In this document: in pieces, positions 18,311 to 24,745 of the stretch
Position numbering within the stretch: position 1 is the first letter of the stretch
Layout: every line of letters begins with the position of its first letter
DNA from: Escherichia phage EcWhh-1
Sequence record: MH791409.1
DNA: 64,000 nucleotides
Reading direction: 5' to 3' (one strand)
Notes under the pieces: model-generated
What the model was told of the DNA's origin: nothing
Database searches by the model: none
What the model saw: the letters and a program-made list of their open reading frames with translations, nothing else
Position numbers and translations under genes: made by a program

Positions 18311-18633
18311 TTCCACCACCTCTTAGATTTAATTTTATCCAGTTCTTCTTGTATTTGCATTGTAACACATTTTTCTACATGAAGCGCTAGCTCTTCTTTT
18401 CGGTCTTCGGAAGGTGTTCCGAAATCAACCGACACTTTTCCATCTTTCTCAATAACAATATTCATCACATAAACGATGTGAGCAGTGCCATCGGGTAAAG
18501 TAAGCATAATTTCCTGCTTAACAGAACCCATTGACTTACGGATTATATCTAATGATTTCTCATAATAACGAGGGTCACTAGGACCCTCTTCGGTATCTTT
18601 AACAAAATTATCTAAATCAGATAAATCAGTCAT
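18304..18633 (-). CDS. 40: gp40-position protein (head vertex assembly chaperone slot), 109 aa
   Basis: Lies between uvsX and 41 as in T4. Overlaps both neighbours. Confidence 0.5.
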   Translation of the reverse strand: MTDLSDLDNFVKDTEEGPSDPRYYEKSLDIIRKSMGSVKQEIMLTLPDGTAHIVYVMNIVIEKDGKVSVDFGTPSEDRKEELALHVEKCVTMQIQEELDKIKSKRWWKW

Positions 18634-19807
18634 GGTCGCTCACAAAATTCATGTTTTCTAAATCGCTTTCGATGTCAGCAGCGCTTTGGGTATTTCCACC
18701 TAATTTAACAGAAACGTTCTTAGAGACACGAGAGTTAATAAGGTCGTTCACTGCATCGTCAACTTCTTTAATAGAATTAATTGCACCGAGCTTATACTTA
18801 TTCTCGATTGCTTCACGGAACGGAGCATGTTTAAACAGTGGTCCCCAGAACTCAACACAATCGGTAGCTTTAGCACGCCATGCTTTTTCTTCTTGAACCA
18901 TTTCACCTGTGGTTTCGTCAAGGAATGCACGATTATACCACCCAGCTTTAGGTTTCACGACAAAGCCGATATCAGTAGCCATTTCAAGCAATCCACTGAA
19001 TGGGTCGATACCGCCTTCAAAGTTAACGGTGATAGGGAACGTTGACTTCTCTTTAACCGTACGAGATTTCTCAGCCTTAAGTGTGAAGTCATAACCAGTG
19101 AGCTCAGTACCATCTTTAACCTGGCGTTTAGAGATAAAGAACACGGTAGAAGCAGAGTACAGAATACCAGTACCACCACCCATAATCTCTTTAGGATACA
19201 TTCCACCAATTTCCATAGCCGTGTGGTTAATTGCTACACAAGGGATATCCTTGATGGTCAGATAAGGTGTTACGATACGGAACAGAGATTTCAGTGACTT
19301 AGCACGAGTCATATCACCTACAACTTTCTCGTTCAAAGCATCTTCGGTTTCTTTCTTAGAAGCAGTGTTACCAATGGAGTCGATAAAGATAATAACCTTT
19401 TCGCCACGAGTAATTTCTTCTAACTGGTTGGTCATATCAACTTTAAGCTGTTCGACTGACTGGATTGGTGTATGAACCACACGTTCCAAATCAACACCCA
19501 TCGAACGGAAATAAGATTCTGAAGCACCGAACTCAGAGTCATAGAACAAGCAAATTGCGTCTGGATATTTCTTCATATATGCCGCAACCATAGTTAATCC
19601 AAACAACGTTTTAAAGTGTTTAGACGGTGCAGCAAAGATTGTCAAACCTGATTGTAAGCCTGCATTCAACGCACCACCCAATGCAATATTAAGCATAGGA
19701 ATACGAGTAGGAACTTCGTCACGACCATTAAACAATTTAGATTTGGTCAGGTCGGCAGTCATTTTAGAAGTAGAAGCTTTAATCAAACGGGATTTTAAAT
19801 CAGACAT
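18626..19807 (-). CDS. uvsX: UvsX RecA-like recombinase
   Basis: 393 aa. Walker A region AAPSKHFKT. T4 UvsX-like throughout. Synteny. Confidence 0.93.
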   Translation of the reverse strand: MSDLKSRLIKASTSKMTADLTKSKLFNGRDEVPTRIPMLNIALGGALNAGLQSGLTIFAAPSKHFKTLFGLTMVAAYMKKYPDAICLFYDSEFGASESYFRSMGVDLERVVHTPIQSVEQLKVDMTNQLEEITRGEKVIIFIDSIGNTASKKETEDALNEKVVGDMTRAKSLKSLFRIVTPYLTIKDIPCVAINHTAMEIGGMYPKEIMGGGTGILYSASTVFFISKRQVKDGTELTGYDFTLKAEKSRTVKEKSTFPITVNFEGGIDPFSGLLEMATDIGFVVKPKAGWYNRAFLDETTGEMVQEEKAWRAKATDCVEFWGPLFKHAPFREAIENKYKLGAINSIKEVDDAVNDLINSRVSKNVSVKLGGNTQSAADIESDLENMNFVSDHD

Positions 19808-19859: not shown

Positions 19860-19887
19860 ATTATATCACTTCACAGCTACAGCATTA
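19860..19887 (-). promoter_or_regulatory. MotA-type middle promoter for uvsX
   Basis: taATGCTGTA (19887-19878), 12 nt, TATAAT (19865-19860). Confidence 0.5.
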
Positions 19888-20016
19888 CTTAATTCCTCGG
19901 TTGATAGCCTTATCGACTATCTTCCGAACTTCTCGTTTCTCGAGCCACACTAATAATAGCAAGCCTCCGAAAGAGAATAATAACAAACCTATAAAAAGCA
20001 ATAGAGGACCTAGCAT
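19885..20016 (-). CDS. single-pass membrane micro-protein, 43 aa
   Basis: Below cutoff. GAGGA SD. ATG 20016 overlaps the upstream stop by 7 nt. MLGPLLLFIGLLLFSFGGLLLLVWLEKREV... Confidence 0.45.
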   Translation of the reverse strand: MLGPLLLFIGLLLFSFGGLLLLVWLEKREVRKIVDKAINRGIK

Positions 20017-20903
20017 ACTACGTCCTCATAACGTGGCATTTCGTATTCAGAATGAATATTGGCACCGAAATAAATGAATTCAGCCAGACCAGGATGGAAT
20101 ACTAAACCTGGGTTCTCATGATAAATGATATGTGGTCTTGATTTCAGAATTTGATAATATTCAACCTTACTCGGTTTGAATTTAATAATCTCTACATCAG
20201 GACGATAGTCTTCGCGCTTAAATGAATCATTAGGGTCGGTGATATAAAGACGAGCACCTTCAGCGGCAGCTTGGTCTACAACTCTTTCGAATTGATAACA
20301 CTTATCCGAAATACGGAATGGATGGAAAATACCATCAATTTTAATAGGCGCTAGACCTTCAGAGTAACGCTCAATTACTGCAGGATTAATTACCTTTTGG
20401 TCTACAAAAATCTTATCAGAGGATGCACCTCGTGACATCAGGACGTCTTTCTGGCATTGATTCAAGACTGTAGTATAAAGTGAACGTTCAACTGAAGCCA
20501 CATCAATATCAATGAACTCGTCGATATAATAACGAGGAACTTCAGGGTCCATTGTGATATTAAAGTTGAATTGTACAGTATGAGCACCATCATAACCGGT
20601 GATATCGGTCACCAGTCCTGAGCAATCATAGTATTCGATTAGTGAATCGACTACAAACTCATTTTCAGACCAGAAATGTTTACGGGTTTCATAAGCATTT
20701 TCTTTATACCAAAGTGGTACGAAATTCAGTTCTGGGAATAATTCAATGCATTCTTTGATATCGCTCGAATTTCTAGGATAAGCCAGATAATCACCTGGAC
20801 GAGCACGATTTAAATGGAGTTGAAAATTACCGTCCTTAAGGACGGCATATTCACCTGTTTCGTAACTACGCATACTGAAAATAGGAACGATAAACAAACT
20901 CAT
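20010..20903 (-). CDS. orphan 297-aa protein in the beta-glucosyltransferase slot; candidate hmC glycosyltransferase
   Basis: ATGA-coupled to gene 42. Not alignable by eye to T4 beta-gt, except for a loose GT-B-like block IFHPFRISDKCYQFERVV versus T4 GGSFRSGQRESKMVEF. Confidence 0.35.
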   Translation of the reverse strand: MSLFIVPIFSMRSYETGEYAVLKDGNFQLHLNRARPGDYLAYPRNSSDIKECIELFPELNFVPLWYKENAYETRKHFWSENEFVVDSLIEYYDCSGLVTDITGYDGAHTVQFNFNITMDPEVPRYYIDEFIDIDVASVERSLYTTVLNQCQKDVLMSRGASSDKIFVDQKVINPAVIERYSEGLAPIKIDGIFHPFRISDKCYQFERVVDQAAAEGARLYITDPNDSFKREDYRPDVEIIKFKPSKVEYYQILKSRPHIIYHENPGLVFHPGLAEFIYFGANIHSEYEMPRYEDVVC

Positions 20904-21598
20904 TTCAGGAAACCTCGGACGTAGTCAAAATCACGTTCAAACACGTGTGCACTTACCATGGTGTGGGAATATGTACCTAAACCGACACCACACTGTTCAG
21001 CAATAAATGCCATCAGTTTACCCTGCAGATAGAAATCCAGCTGCATAACAACGGCGCAGTTTTGTGAACGCATATGAGTGTGTGCATACAGACGTCCATC
21101 ACGAATATAATATGTTACCGAATCGGTACACGGATATTCTAGGGATTCGTCAGAATCAAGGAGGGCTTGGTCTTGTTCTTGGAGAATTTGGAACACAACT
21201 CGTCTCGAGTTAGGCTTTTCTTTAAGCTCTTTAAGTAGGGCTGGGAGTTGGGCCACAATTCGAGGGCCATAGAAAGTGTTGAAGTTTGCAGGCAATACGT
21301 CACTTTTCGGCTTATCAATGAACTTAGCAACATTAGGGTATTCCTTAAATGCTTCGGCAGCGTCAGTACCACCAGAAATCATAAATTTCCAAAAGGATTC
21401 GGCATATTCATAACTAATACGATTGATACGTGGGTCGGTGAATTTATAGGTGCTTGCATCCAGTACTTCTACCGAAGCAGAACCAATTTCATAACAACGT
21501 CCGATACGAGAATCAACTGCAAACTGTGGAGCTTCCAGGATTTCTTCGTTCATTTGTTTAAATGCATTTTCAAAACTAACAGCGGTAATGTGTTTCAT
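20900..21598 (-). CDS. 42: thymidylate-synthase-family deoxypyrimidylate hydroxymethylase (divergent gp42)
   Basis: 232 aa. Conserved blocks: KPNSRR, YPCTDSVTYYIRDGRL, HMRSQN, SAHVF. Lies at the T4 gene 42 position, but is much more diverged from T4 gp42 than its neighbours are from their T4 counterparts. Confidence 0.7.
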   Translation of the reverse strand: MKHITAVSFENAFKQMNEEILEAPQFAVDSRIGRCYEIGSASVEVLDASTYKFTDPRINRISYEYAESFWKFMISGGTDAAEAFKEYPNVAKFIDKPKSDVLPANFNTFYGPRIVAQLPALLKELKEKPNSRRVVFQILQEQDQALLDSDESLEYPCTDSVTYYIRDGRLYAHTHMRSQNCAVVMQLDFYLQGKLMAFIAEQCGVGLGTYSHTMVSAHVFERDFDYVRGFLK

Positions 21599-22131
21599 TT
21601 ATTCACCTTATTTTCAATATATTCGTTCAGACGTTTTAATTCTACCATATCAACATTAAGCAAATTATTATGGCCGTCATGATTTAAGATTTTAAACACG
21701 TTTTCAAAACATGTTTCGTATTGCCGGATAGTTAGGTTGAACTCATCTTTGGTTAATTTAATAAGGTCGTCTTCGAAGTCTTCGTCTAATGGATTGCGAG
21801 TTAAAATAACCTCGATAACGTTAAATTCGGATTTAAACCCTTTCCAATCTTCCAGTTCTACATAAGGGTCCATTTCACCACGAAGGAATCCTGAGTAAAC
21901 AATATTACTTGGATAACCACGGTCAAGGATATAAACGAAATTAGGGTCTAAAAACTTATACAGAGTTTCAACTAAAGCCTTATCGTTATCAGTTCCTAAT
22001 GAAATACACTTGCCATTAATCTTTTTAGGAAAATCAATAAGGCGGTATTTCTTATTGGATAACAGATTTTTAATTAAAGTGGACTTCCCGGAATTATCCG
22101 GGCCGTCTATAACAATGATTTTTGGATTCAT
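21595..22131 (-). CDS. P-loop (thymidylate/dNMP kinase-like) kinase
   Basis: 178 aa. Walker A VIDGPDNSGKST, DRG motif. ATGA overlaps at both ends. Confidence 0.55.
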   Translation of the reverse strand: MNPKIIVIDGPDNSGKSTLIKNLLSNKKYRLIDFPKKINGKCISLGTDNDKALVETLYKFLDPNFVYILDRGYPSNIVYSGFLRGEMDPYVELEDWKGFKSEFNVIEVILTRNPLDEDFEDDLIKLTKDEFNLTIRQYETCFENVFKILNHDGHNNLLNVDMVELKRLNEYIENKVNK

Positions 22132-22511
22132 GGATGATAGGCCTTATAACTATCAAGAGTTCCTTCACGAACCATTTCTTTAAAGTGGTCAGGACGGATT
22201 GCTCGGTCATCGATGATAAAAGTATAACTCGGCTTATGCGTAAGCAGATTATGATATTTCAATCCAATCTTTTCAAGGTTCTTAACCAATGCAGGAACTA
22301 CTTCAACCAAGATTCGACCTGGGCCACATGAAGTCATGCCACGGGCAGTGAATAATGTAATCTCGTACCCTTCATCATAAAGCTTATTAATCATGGACAC
22401 CATTTCGGTGTCCGGTTTAAAGTTCTCATAATCACGGTCATGGTTCCAAATCGTGATTGTGTTATCGATATCAAAACATAAATGTGGCTTATTTTCTACT
22501 CGATGCGACAT
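22128..22511 (-). CDS. HAD-superfamily phosphatase
   Basis: Motif I FDIDNTIT, motif II LFTAR, motif III KPSYTFIIDDR. ATG 22511 is TAATG-coupled (alternative start ATG 22526). Confidence 0.6.
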   Translation of the reverse strand: MSHRVENKPHLCFDIDNTITIWNHDRDYENFKPDTEMVSMINKLYDEGYEITLFTARGMTSCGPGRILVEVVPALVKNLEKIGLKYHNLLTHKPSYTFIIDDRAIRPDHFKEMVREGTLDSYKAYHP

Positions 22512-24184
22512 TAAATTTTCTTCCATTGTTTGTGGAGTTCAGTAGAACCTGTAGGTTTATATTTTACACCAGTTTCCTGGTCAAGCAAAACCCACTTATC
22601 AGGACAACGAGTAATAATTTGAGCCGTGATAGGGTCACGAACTTCATCGACAAATTCACCAGTAATAAGCTTACGCTTATGAGGATGCCGCTTCAGCAGC
22701 ACACTCAGTTGATACAAACCGTTATAATAAGCACCCAGAGCTTTCAGAGGGTTATTCTTAAAGTAACCTGCCAGCGCCATCCAAATAACAGCAATCCAGA
22801 GCTTGTGCTTAAATGTGCACATAGGAATATCGTCTAAAGGCATAACCTTTTCGATATCAACGAATACACGAGTTCCGTTACGAGTTAATCCACCCCATAG
22901 AGGGTCTGAGTTAAATTTGTCATAGCCATCGATAGAATAAAGCACCTTAGCTTCATCATAAATCGCAGGGCCTTTAGAACTATTACCGAAATAACCACGT
23001 GGGTCGATGATTTTAATATCACCTTCGTCCGACAGCATAATATTACTGTAGTGCGGGTCGCCATGAATAAGTTGGTACGGTTCTTTATGTTCAGACAGAA
23101 TTTCTAGTGCATGGCGGAGAAGTTTTTCGGGGTCGCCTACTTTGAAATCGTTAACATAGGTAATGCCCTGTGGAGCAAAGCCTTCAATCAATCCGGCAAT
23201 AGAAGCATTACGAATAAGGACCTTGTCCAACACTTCTTTCTTAACATCGGAATACCATTGCTCATCGGACGGGTTATCGATAGTTCCACCGAATGAACGT
23301 AATGCACTAATGACCTTATAAACCATGAGGACTTTAGTTTCTTTGGACATAAACCGGTAGGCATCTGCCATGGTACGACCAAAGATACGTTCCATTTTAA
23401 TGAATTCGCCTGGAGAAAAGTCTACAATGCTAGGAACGAATTCAGAATCAATAGAATTATACCAATTGATTTCTTTAGATTGAATTTCTTTACCTAATTC
23501 GTTAGTTGGTACTTTAATAGCCAGATTCTCGGTGAACTCTAATTTATTAAATTCACGGTTAATTTCAGAATCTTCATGGGCCTTGGCAAGTTTCAATTTG
23601 TCACCGACATCAACTACAAAATCCAGTTTACGTTCAGTCAAATAGACCATTGAATCCAGGTTATCAGCAAGGTCTTCGCCATAATTAGAACGGTCGAAAC
23701 CTGTCCAATTGGCTACCTGATACAAACCAACTACACCGCCACCGGTACCAATTTCACGTAAGTACGGTTCTTCAAATGTAAAGCGACAGTCAGTTCCATA
23801 GGTATAACAATAGTCGTTACCCCATTCAACTTTATGACCGATAGGAATGATGTCACACCAGTTAAACAGGACATTATGGCCAATGATATCTTCGGCAATG
23901 CAATCGATAGCATGAGCTGAACCATTAGCAACATCAACGTTACGAATAGTGAATTTAGGCTTATCACCAGTAATCATGTTAATGGATTTAATATAGCCTT
24001 TAACGAGGTCGTTAAATTTGCTGTGAATAACCAGAATAATTTCATCTGATTGGTTACTATACAAATCATACAAATGTTTTAATACCGTATGTTGTTTGTA
24101 GTTAACCAATACCTTTGGGATTTCGTTAGTAATTGGATACAACCGTGAGCCAAGACCTGCGCCTAAAATAACAACCTTTTTCAT
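22511..24184 (-). CDS. bifunctional sugar-1-phosphate nucleotidyltransferase / APH-choline-kinase-like kinase
   Basis: Start at ATG 24184 (GAGGAA SD). N-terminal VILGAGLGSRLYPIT...PKVLV (GxGxRL NTase). C-terminal LIHGDPHYSNIM...IIDPRG (Brenner HGDxxxxN plus Dxx). Confidence 0.65.
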   Translation of the reverse strand: MKKVVILGAGLGSRLYPITNEIPKVLVNYKQHTVLKHLYDLYSNQSDEIILVIHSKFNDLVKGYIKSINMITGDKPKFTIRNVDVANGSAHAIDCIAEDIIGHNVLFNWCDIIPIGHKVEWGNDYCYTYGTDCRFTFEEPYLREIGTGGGVVGLYQVANWTGFDRSNYGEDLADNLDSMVYLTERKLDFVVDVGDKLKLAKAHEDSEINREFNKLEFTENLAIKVPTNELGKEIQSKEINWYNSIDSEFVPSIVDFSPGEFIKMERIFGRTMADAYRFMSKETKVLMVYKVISALRSFGGTIDNPSDEQWYSDVKKEVLDKVLIRNASIAGLIEGFAPQGITYVNDFKVGDPEKLLRHALEILSEHKEPYQLIHGDPHYSNIMLSDEGDIKIIDPRGYFGNSSKGPAIYDEAKVLYSIDGYDKFNSDPLWGGLTRNGTRVFVDIEKVMPLDDIPMCTFKHKLWIAVIWMALAGYFKNNPLKALGAYYNGLYQLSVLLKRHPHKRKLITGEFVDEVRDPITAQIITRCPDKWVLLDQETGVKYKPTGSTELHKQWKKI

Positions 24185-24244
24185 TATCTGTTCCTCAAGT
24201 GAATGTAGGTACATTATACACTATTTTTAATAAATTTCTATTGC

Positions 24245-24745
24245 TTAAATCTTATCTTTACCGTATTCCATGCACTGTTCTACTGCAGCAGGCACTTTGG
24301 TCTTAAGCTTGTTGATTTGTTTCTTATAATCACGAGCCTTATCGAAGCTCTCGGTTTCGAGCATTTCGTAATAACGAGCCTCGTGGACAGAAATCTGTAG
24401 ATTGATATGGTTTACACACATGGCATACAGTTTCTGCTTTTTGTACAAATCATCTTGGCGCTTCATTTCTGCCTGGTGTTTGGCTAGTACCGCTTCACGC
24501 TTAGACTCTTGTTCACGTTGGAATTCGATTTCCCTTTGAGCATATTTTGCACAGTTATTACCACATTGATTATTAGCTCGGGTGTACACAAGTCCAGAAC
24601 CGGCACGGAATTTCATTTCGCCGTCGAATTGTTTCTGTTCAGCTGCGATACGAGCTTTACCAACTTCATCAGCAGAAACTGCATCACCGTATTGGACTGC
24701 GCAACCTGATAGGAGCATACTCATTGCGATAATTAACTTTTTCAT
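24245..24745 (-). CDS. predicted lipoprotein, 166 aa
   Basis: MKKLIIAMSMLLSG|C lipobox. Coiled-coil-like, charged mature part. Confidence 0.6.
   Translation of the reverse strand: MKKLIIAMSMLLSGCAVQYGDAVSADEVGKARIAAEQKQFDGEMKFRAGSGLVYTRANNQCGNNCAKYAQREIEFQREQESKREAVLAKHQAEMKRQDDLYKKQKLYAMCVNHINLQISVHEARYYEMLETESFDKARDYKKQINKLKTKVPAAVEQCMEYGKDKI

Follow-up and report, generated by a model that had tools for sequence, protein, structure and literature searches.

A putative first arabinosyltransferase for 5-hydroxycytosine in the beta-glucosyltransferase slot of Escherichia phage EcWhh-1

Introduction

This analysis deals with a gene for a protein of 297 amino acids (aa) in Escherichia phage EcWhh-1 (sequence record MH791409.1), studied in a stretch of 64,000 nucleotides (nt) that is called the window below. 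The gene lies where phage T4 encodes its beta-glucosyltransferase (beta-gt). In short, we propose that its product is the Dhakavirus ortholog of gp46:47 of phage RB69, gp79 of Acinetobacter phage DLP3, and TH1_063 of phage Thanatos, and hence a putative first arabinosyltransferase acting on 5-hydroxycytosine (5hoC) in a pathway as already proposed for these relatives. We put the probability of this reading at roughly 80%.

Arabinosyl-5-hydroxycytosine, a DNA hypermodification recognised only recently, lets many T4-like phages evade restriction enzymes and CRISPR nucleases, and candidates for phage therapy are among these phages. In RB69-type DNA, the arabinose is joined directly to O5 of 5hoC, and the original assignment as an arabinosylated 5-hydroxymethylcytosine (hmC) was erroneous. 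The hydroxylated base originates at the nucleotide level, where RB69 gp48, a ThyA homolog carrying a flavin, was found experimentally to make 5-hydroxy-dCMP (5hodCMP) from deoxycytidine monophosphate (dCMP), and an Asn at the position of D169 in Escherichia coli ThyA is a predictive signature of such 5hodCMP synthases (Lee et al. NAR 2026, PMC13326640). Together with a gp1-type deoxynucleoside monophosphate (dNMP) kinase, the ThyA homolog puts 5hoC into E. coli DNA without any sugar (Lee et al., PMC13326640). On the donor side, AfhE and AfhF of phage HY126 are described as converting arabinose 5-phosphate to arabinofuranose bound to uridine diphosphate (UDP-Araf), as far as the work of He et al. 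2026 is recounted by Lee et al. (PMC13326640).

RB69 gp46:47 and DLP3 gp79 have been named putative "arabinosyltransferase 1" (Lee et al. NAR 2026, PMC13326640), and the Dhakaviruses are listed there among the lineages with a syntenic cluster. Since this family was thus described, proposed role included, in 2025–2026, with Dhakaviruses named among the cluster-bearing lineages, the central finding given here is already known. The transfer of the first sugar is nonetheless the step that lacks a reconstitution in the accessible literature, and knowing the acceptor and donor of this transferase would complete the pathway and yield a tool for making glycosylated DNA.

The gene and its position

The gene, its coupling to the preceding gene, and the most conserved part of its product are as follows.

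20010..20903, minus strand: open reading frame (ORF) of 297 aa for a predicted GT-B-fold glycosyltransferase (GT), with ATG start and TAG stop
20900..20903, minus strand: stop/start overlap ATGA, coupling the ThyA homolog to the glycosyltransferase
20229..20330, minus strand: residues 192–225 (IFHPFRISDKCYQF...LYITDPN), the most conserved block of the family

The initial annotation had described a protein of this length encoded at 20010–20903, joined to its upstream neighbour through ATGA, and both statements hold, with the gene on the minus strand. Its ATG overlaps the TGA of an upstream ORF of 232 aa (20900–21598) in the sequence ...CTGAAATGAGT..., and a GAGG lies 9 nt 5' of the start. The coupling of a ThyA homolog to the transferase recurs in relatives, where the junction reads ATGA, TAATG, TGATG, or GTGA.

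On the 3' side, the gene is followed by uvsX (18626–19807; Pfam T4_UVSX_C, 4.2e-36) and then by genes 40 and 41. The order in the window is therefore 43 ... ThyA homolog, 297-aa ORF, uvsX, 40, 41, and that in T4 is 43, imm.1, imm, 42, beta-gt, segA, uvsX, 40, 41. Since the two orders match from the ThyA-family gene to uvsX, the 297-aa ORF fills the slot of T4 beta-gt, as had been noticed from the start.

Directly downstream, a strongly hydrophobic ORF of 43 aa (MLGPLLLFIGLLLFSFGGLLLLVWLEK...) lies at 19885–20016 on the minus strand, with an ATG that overlaps the stop codon of the transferase (ATGCTAG). Of six close Dhakavirus loci, four keep it (93–98% conserved) and two lack it, and in Dhakavirus UP19 it is unannotated. 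A scan for promoters and terminators gave 16 candidates where 18.6 were expected from shuffling, and with a yield not above chance we draw no transcript boundaries from it.

A widespread family with a conserved C-terminal block

The protein had been called an orphan, a label that no longer applies. Searches with tblastn find it in 352 phage records, at 95–100% identity in Dhakavirus genomes (e.g., 99.7% in UP19), at about 67% in Mosigvirus genomes including RB69, and at 47–55% in phages of Acinetobacter, Proteus, and Pseudomonas. It matches PHROG 3891 ("unknown function") at 9.5e-159 over residues 1–296, is related to 117 clusters formed at 90% identity, and, in a HMMER scan of 1.84 billion representatives at 50% identity, recovers 243 at E ≤ 1e-3 and 63 at E ≤ 1e-30. 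TH1_063 of Thanatos is 52% identical. The RB69 products ORF047c and ORF046c are 65–69% identical and, according to the literature, belong to the single gene gp46:47, divided by a sequencing error; the GenBank record of RB69 (AY303349; locus L003, 7001–7901) still displays the ortholog as these two ORFs. RB69 ORF053c/052c was divided by the same kind of frameshift error, as the literature likewise records.

Eleven positions are invariant in the 109 aligned sequences, namely R74, P195, F196, R197, D200, Y203, T222, P224, N225, K246, and H270, and position 275 is always acidic (E in 90 sequences, D in 19). Conservation is highest in residues 192–225, where D223, P224, and N225, invariant or nearly so, come right after T222. 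In the structural model, this region forms the first beta-loop-alpha-beta unit of the C-terminal domain, with a strand at 192–194, a helix at 205–215, and a strand at 219–221.

GT-B enzymes bind the diphosphate of their donor where their C-terminal Rossmann-like domain begins, and by this architecture residues 192–225 are the likely candidate for the donor-diphosphate site. A segment of the protein had earlier been singled out as the only hint of a GT-B nucleotide-binding region, in comparison with GGSFRSGQR of T4 beta-gt. The segment (residues 192–223) is a real feature that belongs to the most conserved block and lies where the C-terminal domain starts. Its T4 counterpart contains R191 and R195, which we take to be the residues contacting the UDP phosphates in the structures of beta-gt with UDP. 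The hint was thus a reasonable one, yet it amounts to an analogy of architecture, since no homology to beta-gt is detectable. That the protein cannot be aligned to beta-gt was also said at the outset, and it stays so even with a profile of 109 sequences (hhalign probability 0.2%). The isoelectric points (pI) differ as well: the family has a median of 5.2 and the 297-aa protein itself 4.9, compared with 9.05 for T4 beta-gt.

Predicted fold

Structure prediction followed by a Foldseek comparison, which the initial annotation had put forward as a check, indicates a GT-B glycosyltransferase fold with high confidence. AlphaFold run on the single sequence gave an unusable model, with a predicted local distance difference test score (pLDDT) of 30.6, and an alignment of 109 sequences was needed. 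With it, the AF2 model reached a pLDDT of 95.9 and a predicted template modelling score (pTM) of 0.90. It consists of two Rossmann-like domains and strongly resembles solved GT-B enzymes. A structure search of BFVD ranks the orthologs first and viral family-1 glycosyltransferases next.

The likeness is one of fold, in a compact protein of divergent sequence. The family model of CAZy GT4 (Glycos_transf_1) does not recognise its sequence signature, including the EX7E region, in the protein, and neither sequence similarity nor close structural similarity to T4 beta-gt (GT63) was found. An hhalign comparison of the family profile with the RB69 transferase ORF003c found nothing.

The coupled gene and the acceptor base

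The gene that precedes the transferase bears directly on the acceptor.

20900..21598, minus strand: flavin-dependent-type 5hodCMP synthase of the thymidylate synthase family, 232 aa, 80% identical to RB69 gp48

It had been taken for gene 42, the dCMP hydroxymethylase of T4, an identification that fails on the comparison of 25% identity to T4 gp42 with 80% identity to RB69 gp48. The best solved relatives are 9iqu, 9iqc, and 9ir2 (E 1.7e-126), set against 1.1e-5 for T4 gp42. In the alignment with T4 gp42, C157 corresponds to the catalytic C148, N180 to D171 (D169 of E. coli ThyA), and D188 to D179 (N177 of E. coli ThyA). Because N180 aligns with T4 D171, the D169N signature is present in the window, and judged by its sequence, the supposed gene 42 is of the 5hodCMP synthase type and not a dCMP hydroxymethylase.

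With a coupled upstream enzyme of this type, the acceptor is not expected to be hmC, and the locus of the 297-aa protein is not that of an enzyme acting on hmC from a gp42-type hydroxymethylase. The protein had been named as the best candidate in the window for the enzyme decorating hmC in DNA. The part of this claim that stands is that it is the best candidate for decorating a base, as it is the only GT candidate found in the window and in the phage genus; the acceptor named in it falls away. Overall, the initial annotation is partly supported: it named the fold class and the general role correctly and erred on the acceptor base, on what the neighbouring gene is, and in calling the protein an orphan. 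There is a lesson for annotation in this: "gene 42" in these phages would be a cytosine hydroxylase and not a hydroxymethylase, and the neighbouring "hypothetical protein", which Pfam and NCBIfam leave unmatched and PHROGs files under unknown function, a sugar transferase.

Putative donor-sugar genes in the same operon

The transferase and the 5hodCMP synthase are the last two of five minus-strand genes, running from 24214 to 20010, that are chained by overlaps in the order AfhE-like protein, HAD protein, kinase, 5hodCMP synthase, and GT. The first three are listed here.

22511..24214, minus strand: bifunctional sugar kinase/nucleoside diphosphate (NDP)-sugar pyrophosphorylase, AfhE-like, 567 aa, with Pfam NTP_transferase and APH domains
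22128..22526, minus strand: HAD-family sugar phosphatase, AfhF-like, 62% identical to RB69 ORF051c
21595..22131, minus strand: P-loop kinase resembling thymidylate kinase (TMK), 178 aa, with weak Pfam and NCBIfam kinase hits and a match to phrog_761

The AfhE-like protein is 41–44% identical to RB69 ORF053c/052c and, by analogy to HY126 AfhE, resembles an arabinose kinase/UDP-arabinose pyrophosphorylase. The HAD protein matches the capsule-biosynthesis phosphatase model TIGR01689 at 1.3e-14 and, like HY126 AfhF, would convert arabinofuranose-1,5-bisphosphate to arabinofuranose-1-phosphate. The TMK-like kinase is 38% identical to RB69 ORF045c. The AfhE-like and AfhF-like genes thus share one overlapping operon with the transferase, and by analogy these neighbours would make an arabinose donor and not a glucose donor.

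Four RB69 genes, the isomerase ORF055c, ORF050c, ORF049c, and the second transferase ORF003c, have no counterparts in the window. As an isomerase gene is missing there, the host probably supplies the arabinose 5-phosphate, for which host KdsD/GutQ would have to account.

Some smaller observations concern the upstream end of the cluster. The true start of the AfhE-like gene is probably at 24184 (MKKVVILGAG) and not at the first ATG (24214), as the alignment with RB69 and the UP19 annotation both begin there. A promoter-like sequence, TAGAAA-16-TATAAT, lies close by at 24240–24213, in a scan that overall did not exceed chance. Beside the cluster, a 166-aa ORF (24245–24745, minus strand) has no match in Pfam or NCBIfam; it is conserved in Dhakavirus loci and matches more weakly, at 28–45% identity, in some other loci.

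Neighbourhoods and gene fusions across the family

To see how far this arrangement extends, we counted neighbours in 51 IMG/VR loci that encode a relative of the 297-aa protein. A ThyA homolog lies directly upstream on the same strand in 47 of them. The kinase is adjacent in 44 loci, an AfhE-like gene occurs in 31, a HAD gene in 29, an isomerase gene in 21, and a transferase of the ORF003c type in 4. A group of environmental loci (L032–L047), whose relatives are 37–42% identical, keeps the triad of ThyA homolog, GT, and kinase; genes of the AfhE-like, HAD, and isomerase kinds were not detected by tblastn within 8 kb there, and these relatives may use a different sugar donor.

Homologs of ORF003c occur in 212 records, at 95% identity or more in Mosigvirus-like genomes, at about 43% in Acinetobacter phages, and in one Tegunavirus. 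None is found in the window, and none falls in the identity range expected for a Dhakavirus. With no second transferase in Dhakavirus, the 297-aa protein is the sole recognisable transferase of the genus, and we predict one arabinose on each cytosine of Dhakavirus DNA. Two records of "phage Ec2-ASingh" came up in these searches: PQ561406.1 is a Dhakavirus-like contig with a 99.7% identical transferase, and PQ561417.1 is a Mosigvirus-like contig with a 98.9% identical ORF003c homolog, which suggests a mixed sample.

Fusions make up 17 of the 150 best library representatives of the family. In eight, an N-terminal HAD-like domain (ILDFDGIF...ITGDS...GDDIYD) precedes the GT domain, and in nine, a P-loop kinase domain (EGFDRIGKD[TS]...TRLFxSDYVY) follows it or, once, precedes it.

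HAD-GT fusions: P0131, P0143, P0148, P0152, P0162, P0176, P0193, P0208
GT-kinase fusions: P0200, P0210, P0213, P0216, P0223, P0231, P0242, P0244, P0249

One of the fused kinase domains matches Pfam Thymidylate_kin at 1.2e-4. The alignment of the fused kinases has weak thymidylate-kinase and deoxynucleoside-kinase matches in the PDB and pairs with the kinase of the window over 131 columns (hhalign probability 63%, E 6.9e-5). Genomic context could be read for P0176 and P0231, the contigs of P0216 and P0148 being too short. The HAD-GT fusion P0176 (locus L064, 5304–9849) comes second in a row of ThyA homolog, HAD-GT, SIS isomerase, and NTP_transferase, and a flavin mononucleotide reductase gene adjoins the flavin-dependent ThyA homolog of that locus. 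The GT-kinase fusion P0231 has an isomerase gene, an AfhE-like gene, and an ORF050c-like gene as neighbours. Through the fusions, the transferase is tied to the donor branch of the pathway as well as to the acceptor branch, and they are a small new clue that is apparently not found in the accessible literature.

Proposed function and alternatives

In the proposed pathway, the coupled ThyA homolog would hydroxylate dCMP to 5hodCMP, which would then be phosphorylated and polymerised into the phage DNA as 5hoC. The AfhE-like and AfhF-like enzymes would turn arabinose 5-phosphate into UDP-Araf, and the 297-aa enzyme would probably transfer the first, base-proximal arabinose to the 5-hydroxyl. The resulting arabinosyl-5-hydroxycytosine would shield the genome from restriction and CRISPR nucleases. 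The analysis itself shows the ORF with its coupling, the homology, the predicted fold, and the conserved neighbourhood with its fusions; donor and acceptor are what we infer, and DNA is favoured as the form of the acceptor, by analogy to T4 and to DLP3 gp76/77.

Several points weigh against this assignment. The accessible literature holds no demonstrated transferase activity for the family, and single transferases offered 5hoC-DNA together with UDP-Araf or UDP-arabinopyranose gave no arabinosylation (Lee et al., PMC13326640). Nor did we find a chemical analysis of Dhakavirus DNA in the literature. No model in Pfam (E up to 0.1) or NCBIfam matches the protein, and neither the protein nor the family profile drew more than chance-level hits from PDB sequences, the profile finding no GT among them. 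Two further points, the first rank in Foldseek and a published assay of the Thanatos ortholog, have an alternative function attached to them and are best weighed with it.

Foldseek places non-hydrolysing UDP-N-acetylglucosamine 2-epimerases at the top (E 1.3e-6, template modelling score about 0.5), as might be read for an epimerase-like enzyme that remodels the NDP-sugar donor. Such epimerases share the GT-B architecture. The protein has no match to Pfam Epimerase_2, arabinose 5-phosphate is turned into UDP-Araf without an epimerase in the published pathway, so far as it is recounted, and the phage would lack a transferase; we regard this function as extremely unlikely. A shade less remote, though still very improbable, is that the protein is an NDP-pentose pyrophosphorylase, as reported for its 52% identical ortholog TH1_063, which in His-tagged form gave UDP-xylose from uridine triphosphate and xylose-1-phosphate, identified by tandem mass spectrometry. 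A no-enzyme reaction was the sole control in the publication, and a co-purified E. coli enzyme could have contributed. What makes this reading unlikely is the fold, which is GT-B and not that of a nucleotidyltransferase, together with the canonical pyrophosphorylase domain of the neighbouring AfhE-like protein: the 297-aa protein shows no NTP_transferase signature, the AfhE-like protein already has the domain, and its HY126 homolog is described, in the second-hand account, as a UDP-arabinose pyrophosphorylase. Thanatos and the Dhakaviruses would, moreover, be left with no transferase. We therefore rejected the epimerase and pyrophosphorylase functions alike. Next to no weight goes to a functional analog of T4 beta-gt that would glucosylate hmC in DNA. 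It would share the slot and the GT-B fold with beta-gt, but the coupled enzyme is an ortholog of a 5hodCMP synthase with the D169N signature, the operon carries arabinose-activating enzymes, those relatives whose DNA has been analysed carry arabinosyl-5-hydroxycytosine, and there is no sequence similarity to beta-gt.

A different matter is whether arabinosyl transfer, the function we prefer, takes place on DNA or before replication. The acceptor could be the free nucleotide, 5hodCMP or its di- or triphosphate, which would be arabinosylated, phosphorylated by the TMK-like kinase, and incorporated by the polymerase. The data of Lee et al. (PMC13326640) cannot tell a mononucleotide from DNA as the acceptor, and the lack of activity on 5hoC-DNA would fit. 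The gp1-type dNMP kinase already makes the diphosphate from 5hodCMP, which leaves the TMK-like kinase without a step of its own; this kinase adjoins the GT in 44 of the 51 loci, and at least 9 of the 150 best representatives join it with the GT domain in one protein, although the fused kinase matches that of the window at an hhalign probability of 63% only, and fusions of enzymes that are not consecutive in a pathway exist (e.g., AfhE). Throughout the family, the GT is also translationally coupled to a hydroxylase working at the nucleotide level. Such adjacency to a ThyA-family gene proves little, however, because T4 beta-gt adjoins gene 42 in the same way and yet acts on DNA. The acidic character of the family (median pI 5.2), set against the DNA-binding beta-gt (9.05), is weak evidence in the same direction. 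On the other side, 5hoC can enter DNA without any sugar, and DLP3 gp76/77 act on DNA (Lee et al., PMC13326640).

To our knowledge, all characterised phage DNA glycosyltransferases, including alpha-gt and beta-gt of T4, act on DNA. For this reason, and given the position of beta-gt next to gene 42, we consider glycosylation before replication unlikely, though well worth keeping in view; if true, it would have no known precedent, as a phage DNA glycosylation at the nucleotide level.

Comparison with known systems

Our preferred reading, a first arabinosyltransferase on 5hoC, follows the closest described systems, with some differences in gene content. The orthologs RB69 gp46:47 and DLP3 gp79 have the kinase gene 3' of the GT, whereas in the window it lies 5' of the ThyA homolog, and the window cluster lacks the isomerase, ORF050c/049c, and the second transferase. 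This second arabinosyltransferase, RB69 ORF003c and its counterpart the HY126 glycosyltransferase (9iqz, 9ir0), is a protein of 366 aa of recognisable GT4 type, encoded near rIIA; it has no sequence similarity to the 297-aa protein and adds the second sugar. In Thanatos, TH1_063 lies in the order of ThyA homolog, GT, and kinase, with a stop/start overlap, and no other GT candidate is present in this phage, whose hydroxy-cytosine modification carries one pentose. It was published as a UDP-xylose pyrophosphorylase from an assay in vitro, a function that does not fit the predicted fold.

More distant comparisons concern fold and slot. Bacterial retaining enzymes of GT4, such as sucrose-phosphate synthase (6kih), BshA (6n1x), PimA (2gej), and MshA (3c4q), are the best structural matches, covering 245–267 of the 297 residues at 8–12% identity. 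The phage protein is some 70–100 residues shorter, has no match to Pfam Glycos_transf_1, and differs in its proposed acceptor, a nucleobase. T4 beta-gt (GT63) shares the slot, the GT-B fold, and an F-R motif where the C-terminal domain begins; it uses hmC as acceptor and UDP-glucose as donor and is basic (pI 9.05), unlike the acidic protein of the window (pI 4.9).

Finally, the family extends to the Pootjesviridae. The hypothetical protein gp097 of Rhizobium phage RL2RES (locus L058, 4818–7272) is a homolog by hhalign (99.4%, E 2e-21, 257 columns) that keeps the motifs SMRSYETG, FPFR(I/L)(S/T)D, and TDPN(D/N)S, and its gene overlaps the stop codon of that for the ThyA homolog gp096. In RL38J1, another member of this family of phages, the first sugar on 5hoC was reported to be galactose, and gp215 was named "galactosyltransferase 1"; judging from synteny, RL2RES gp097 would be its counterpart. 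With galactose as the first sugar on 5hoC in RL38J1, the family to which the 297-aa protein belongs seems to be defined by its acceptor, with a sugar that varies from one lineage to the next.

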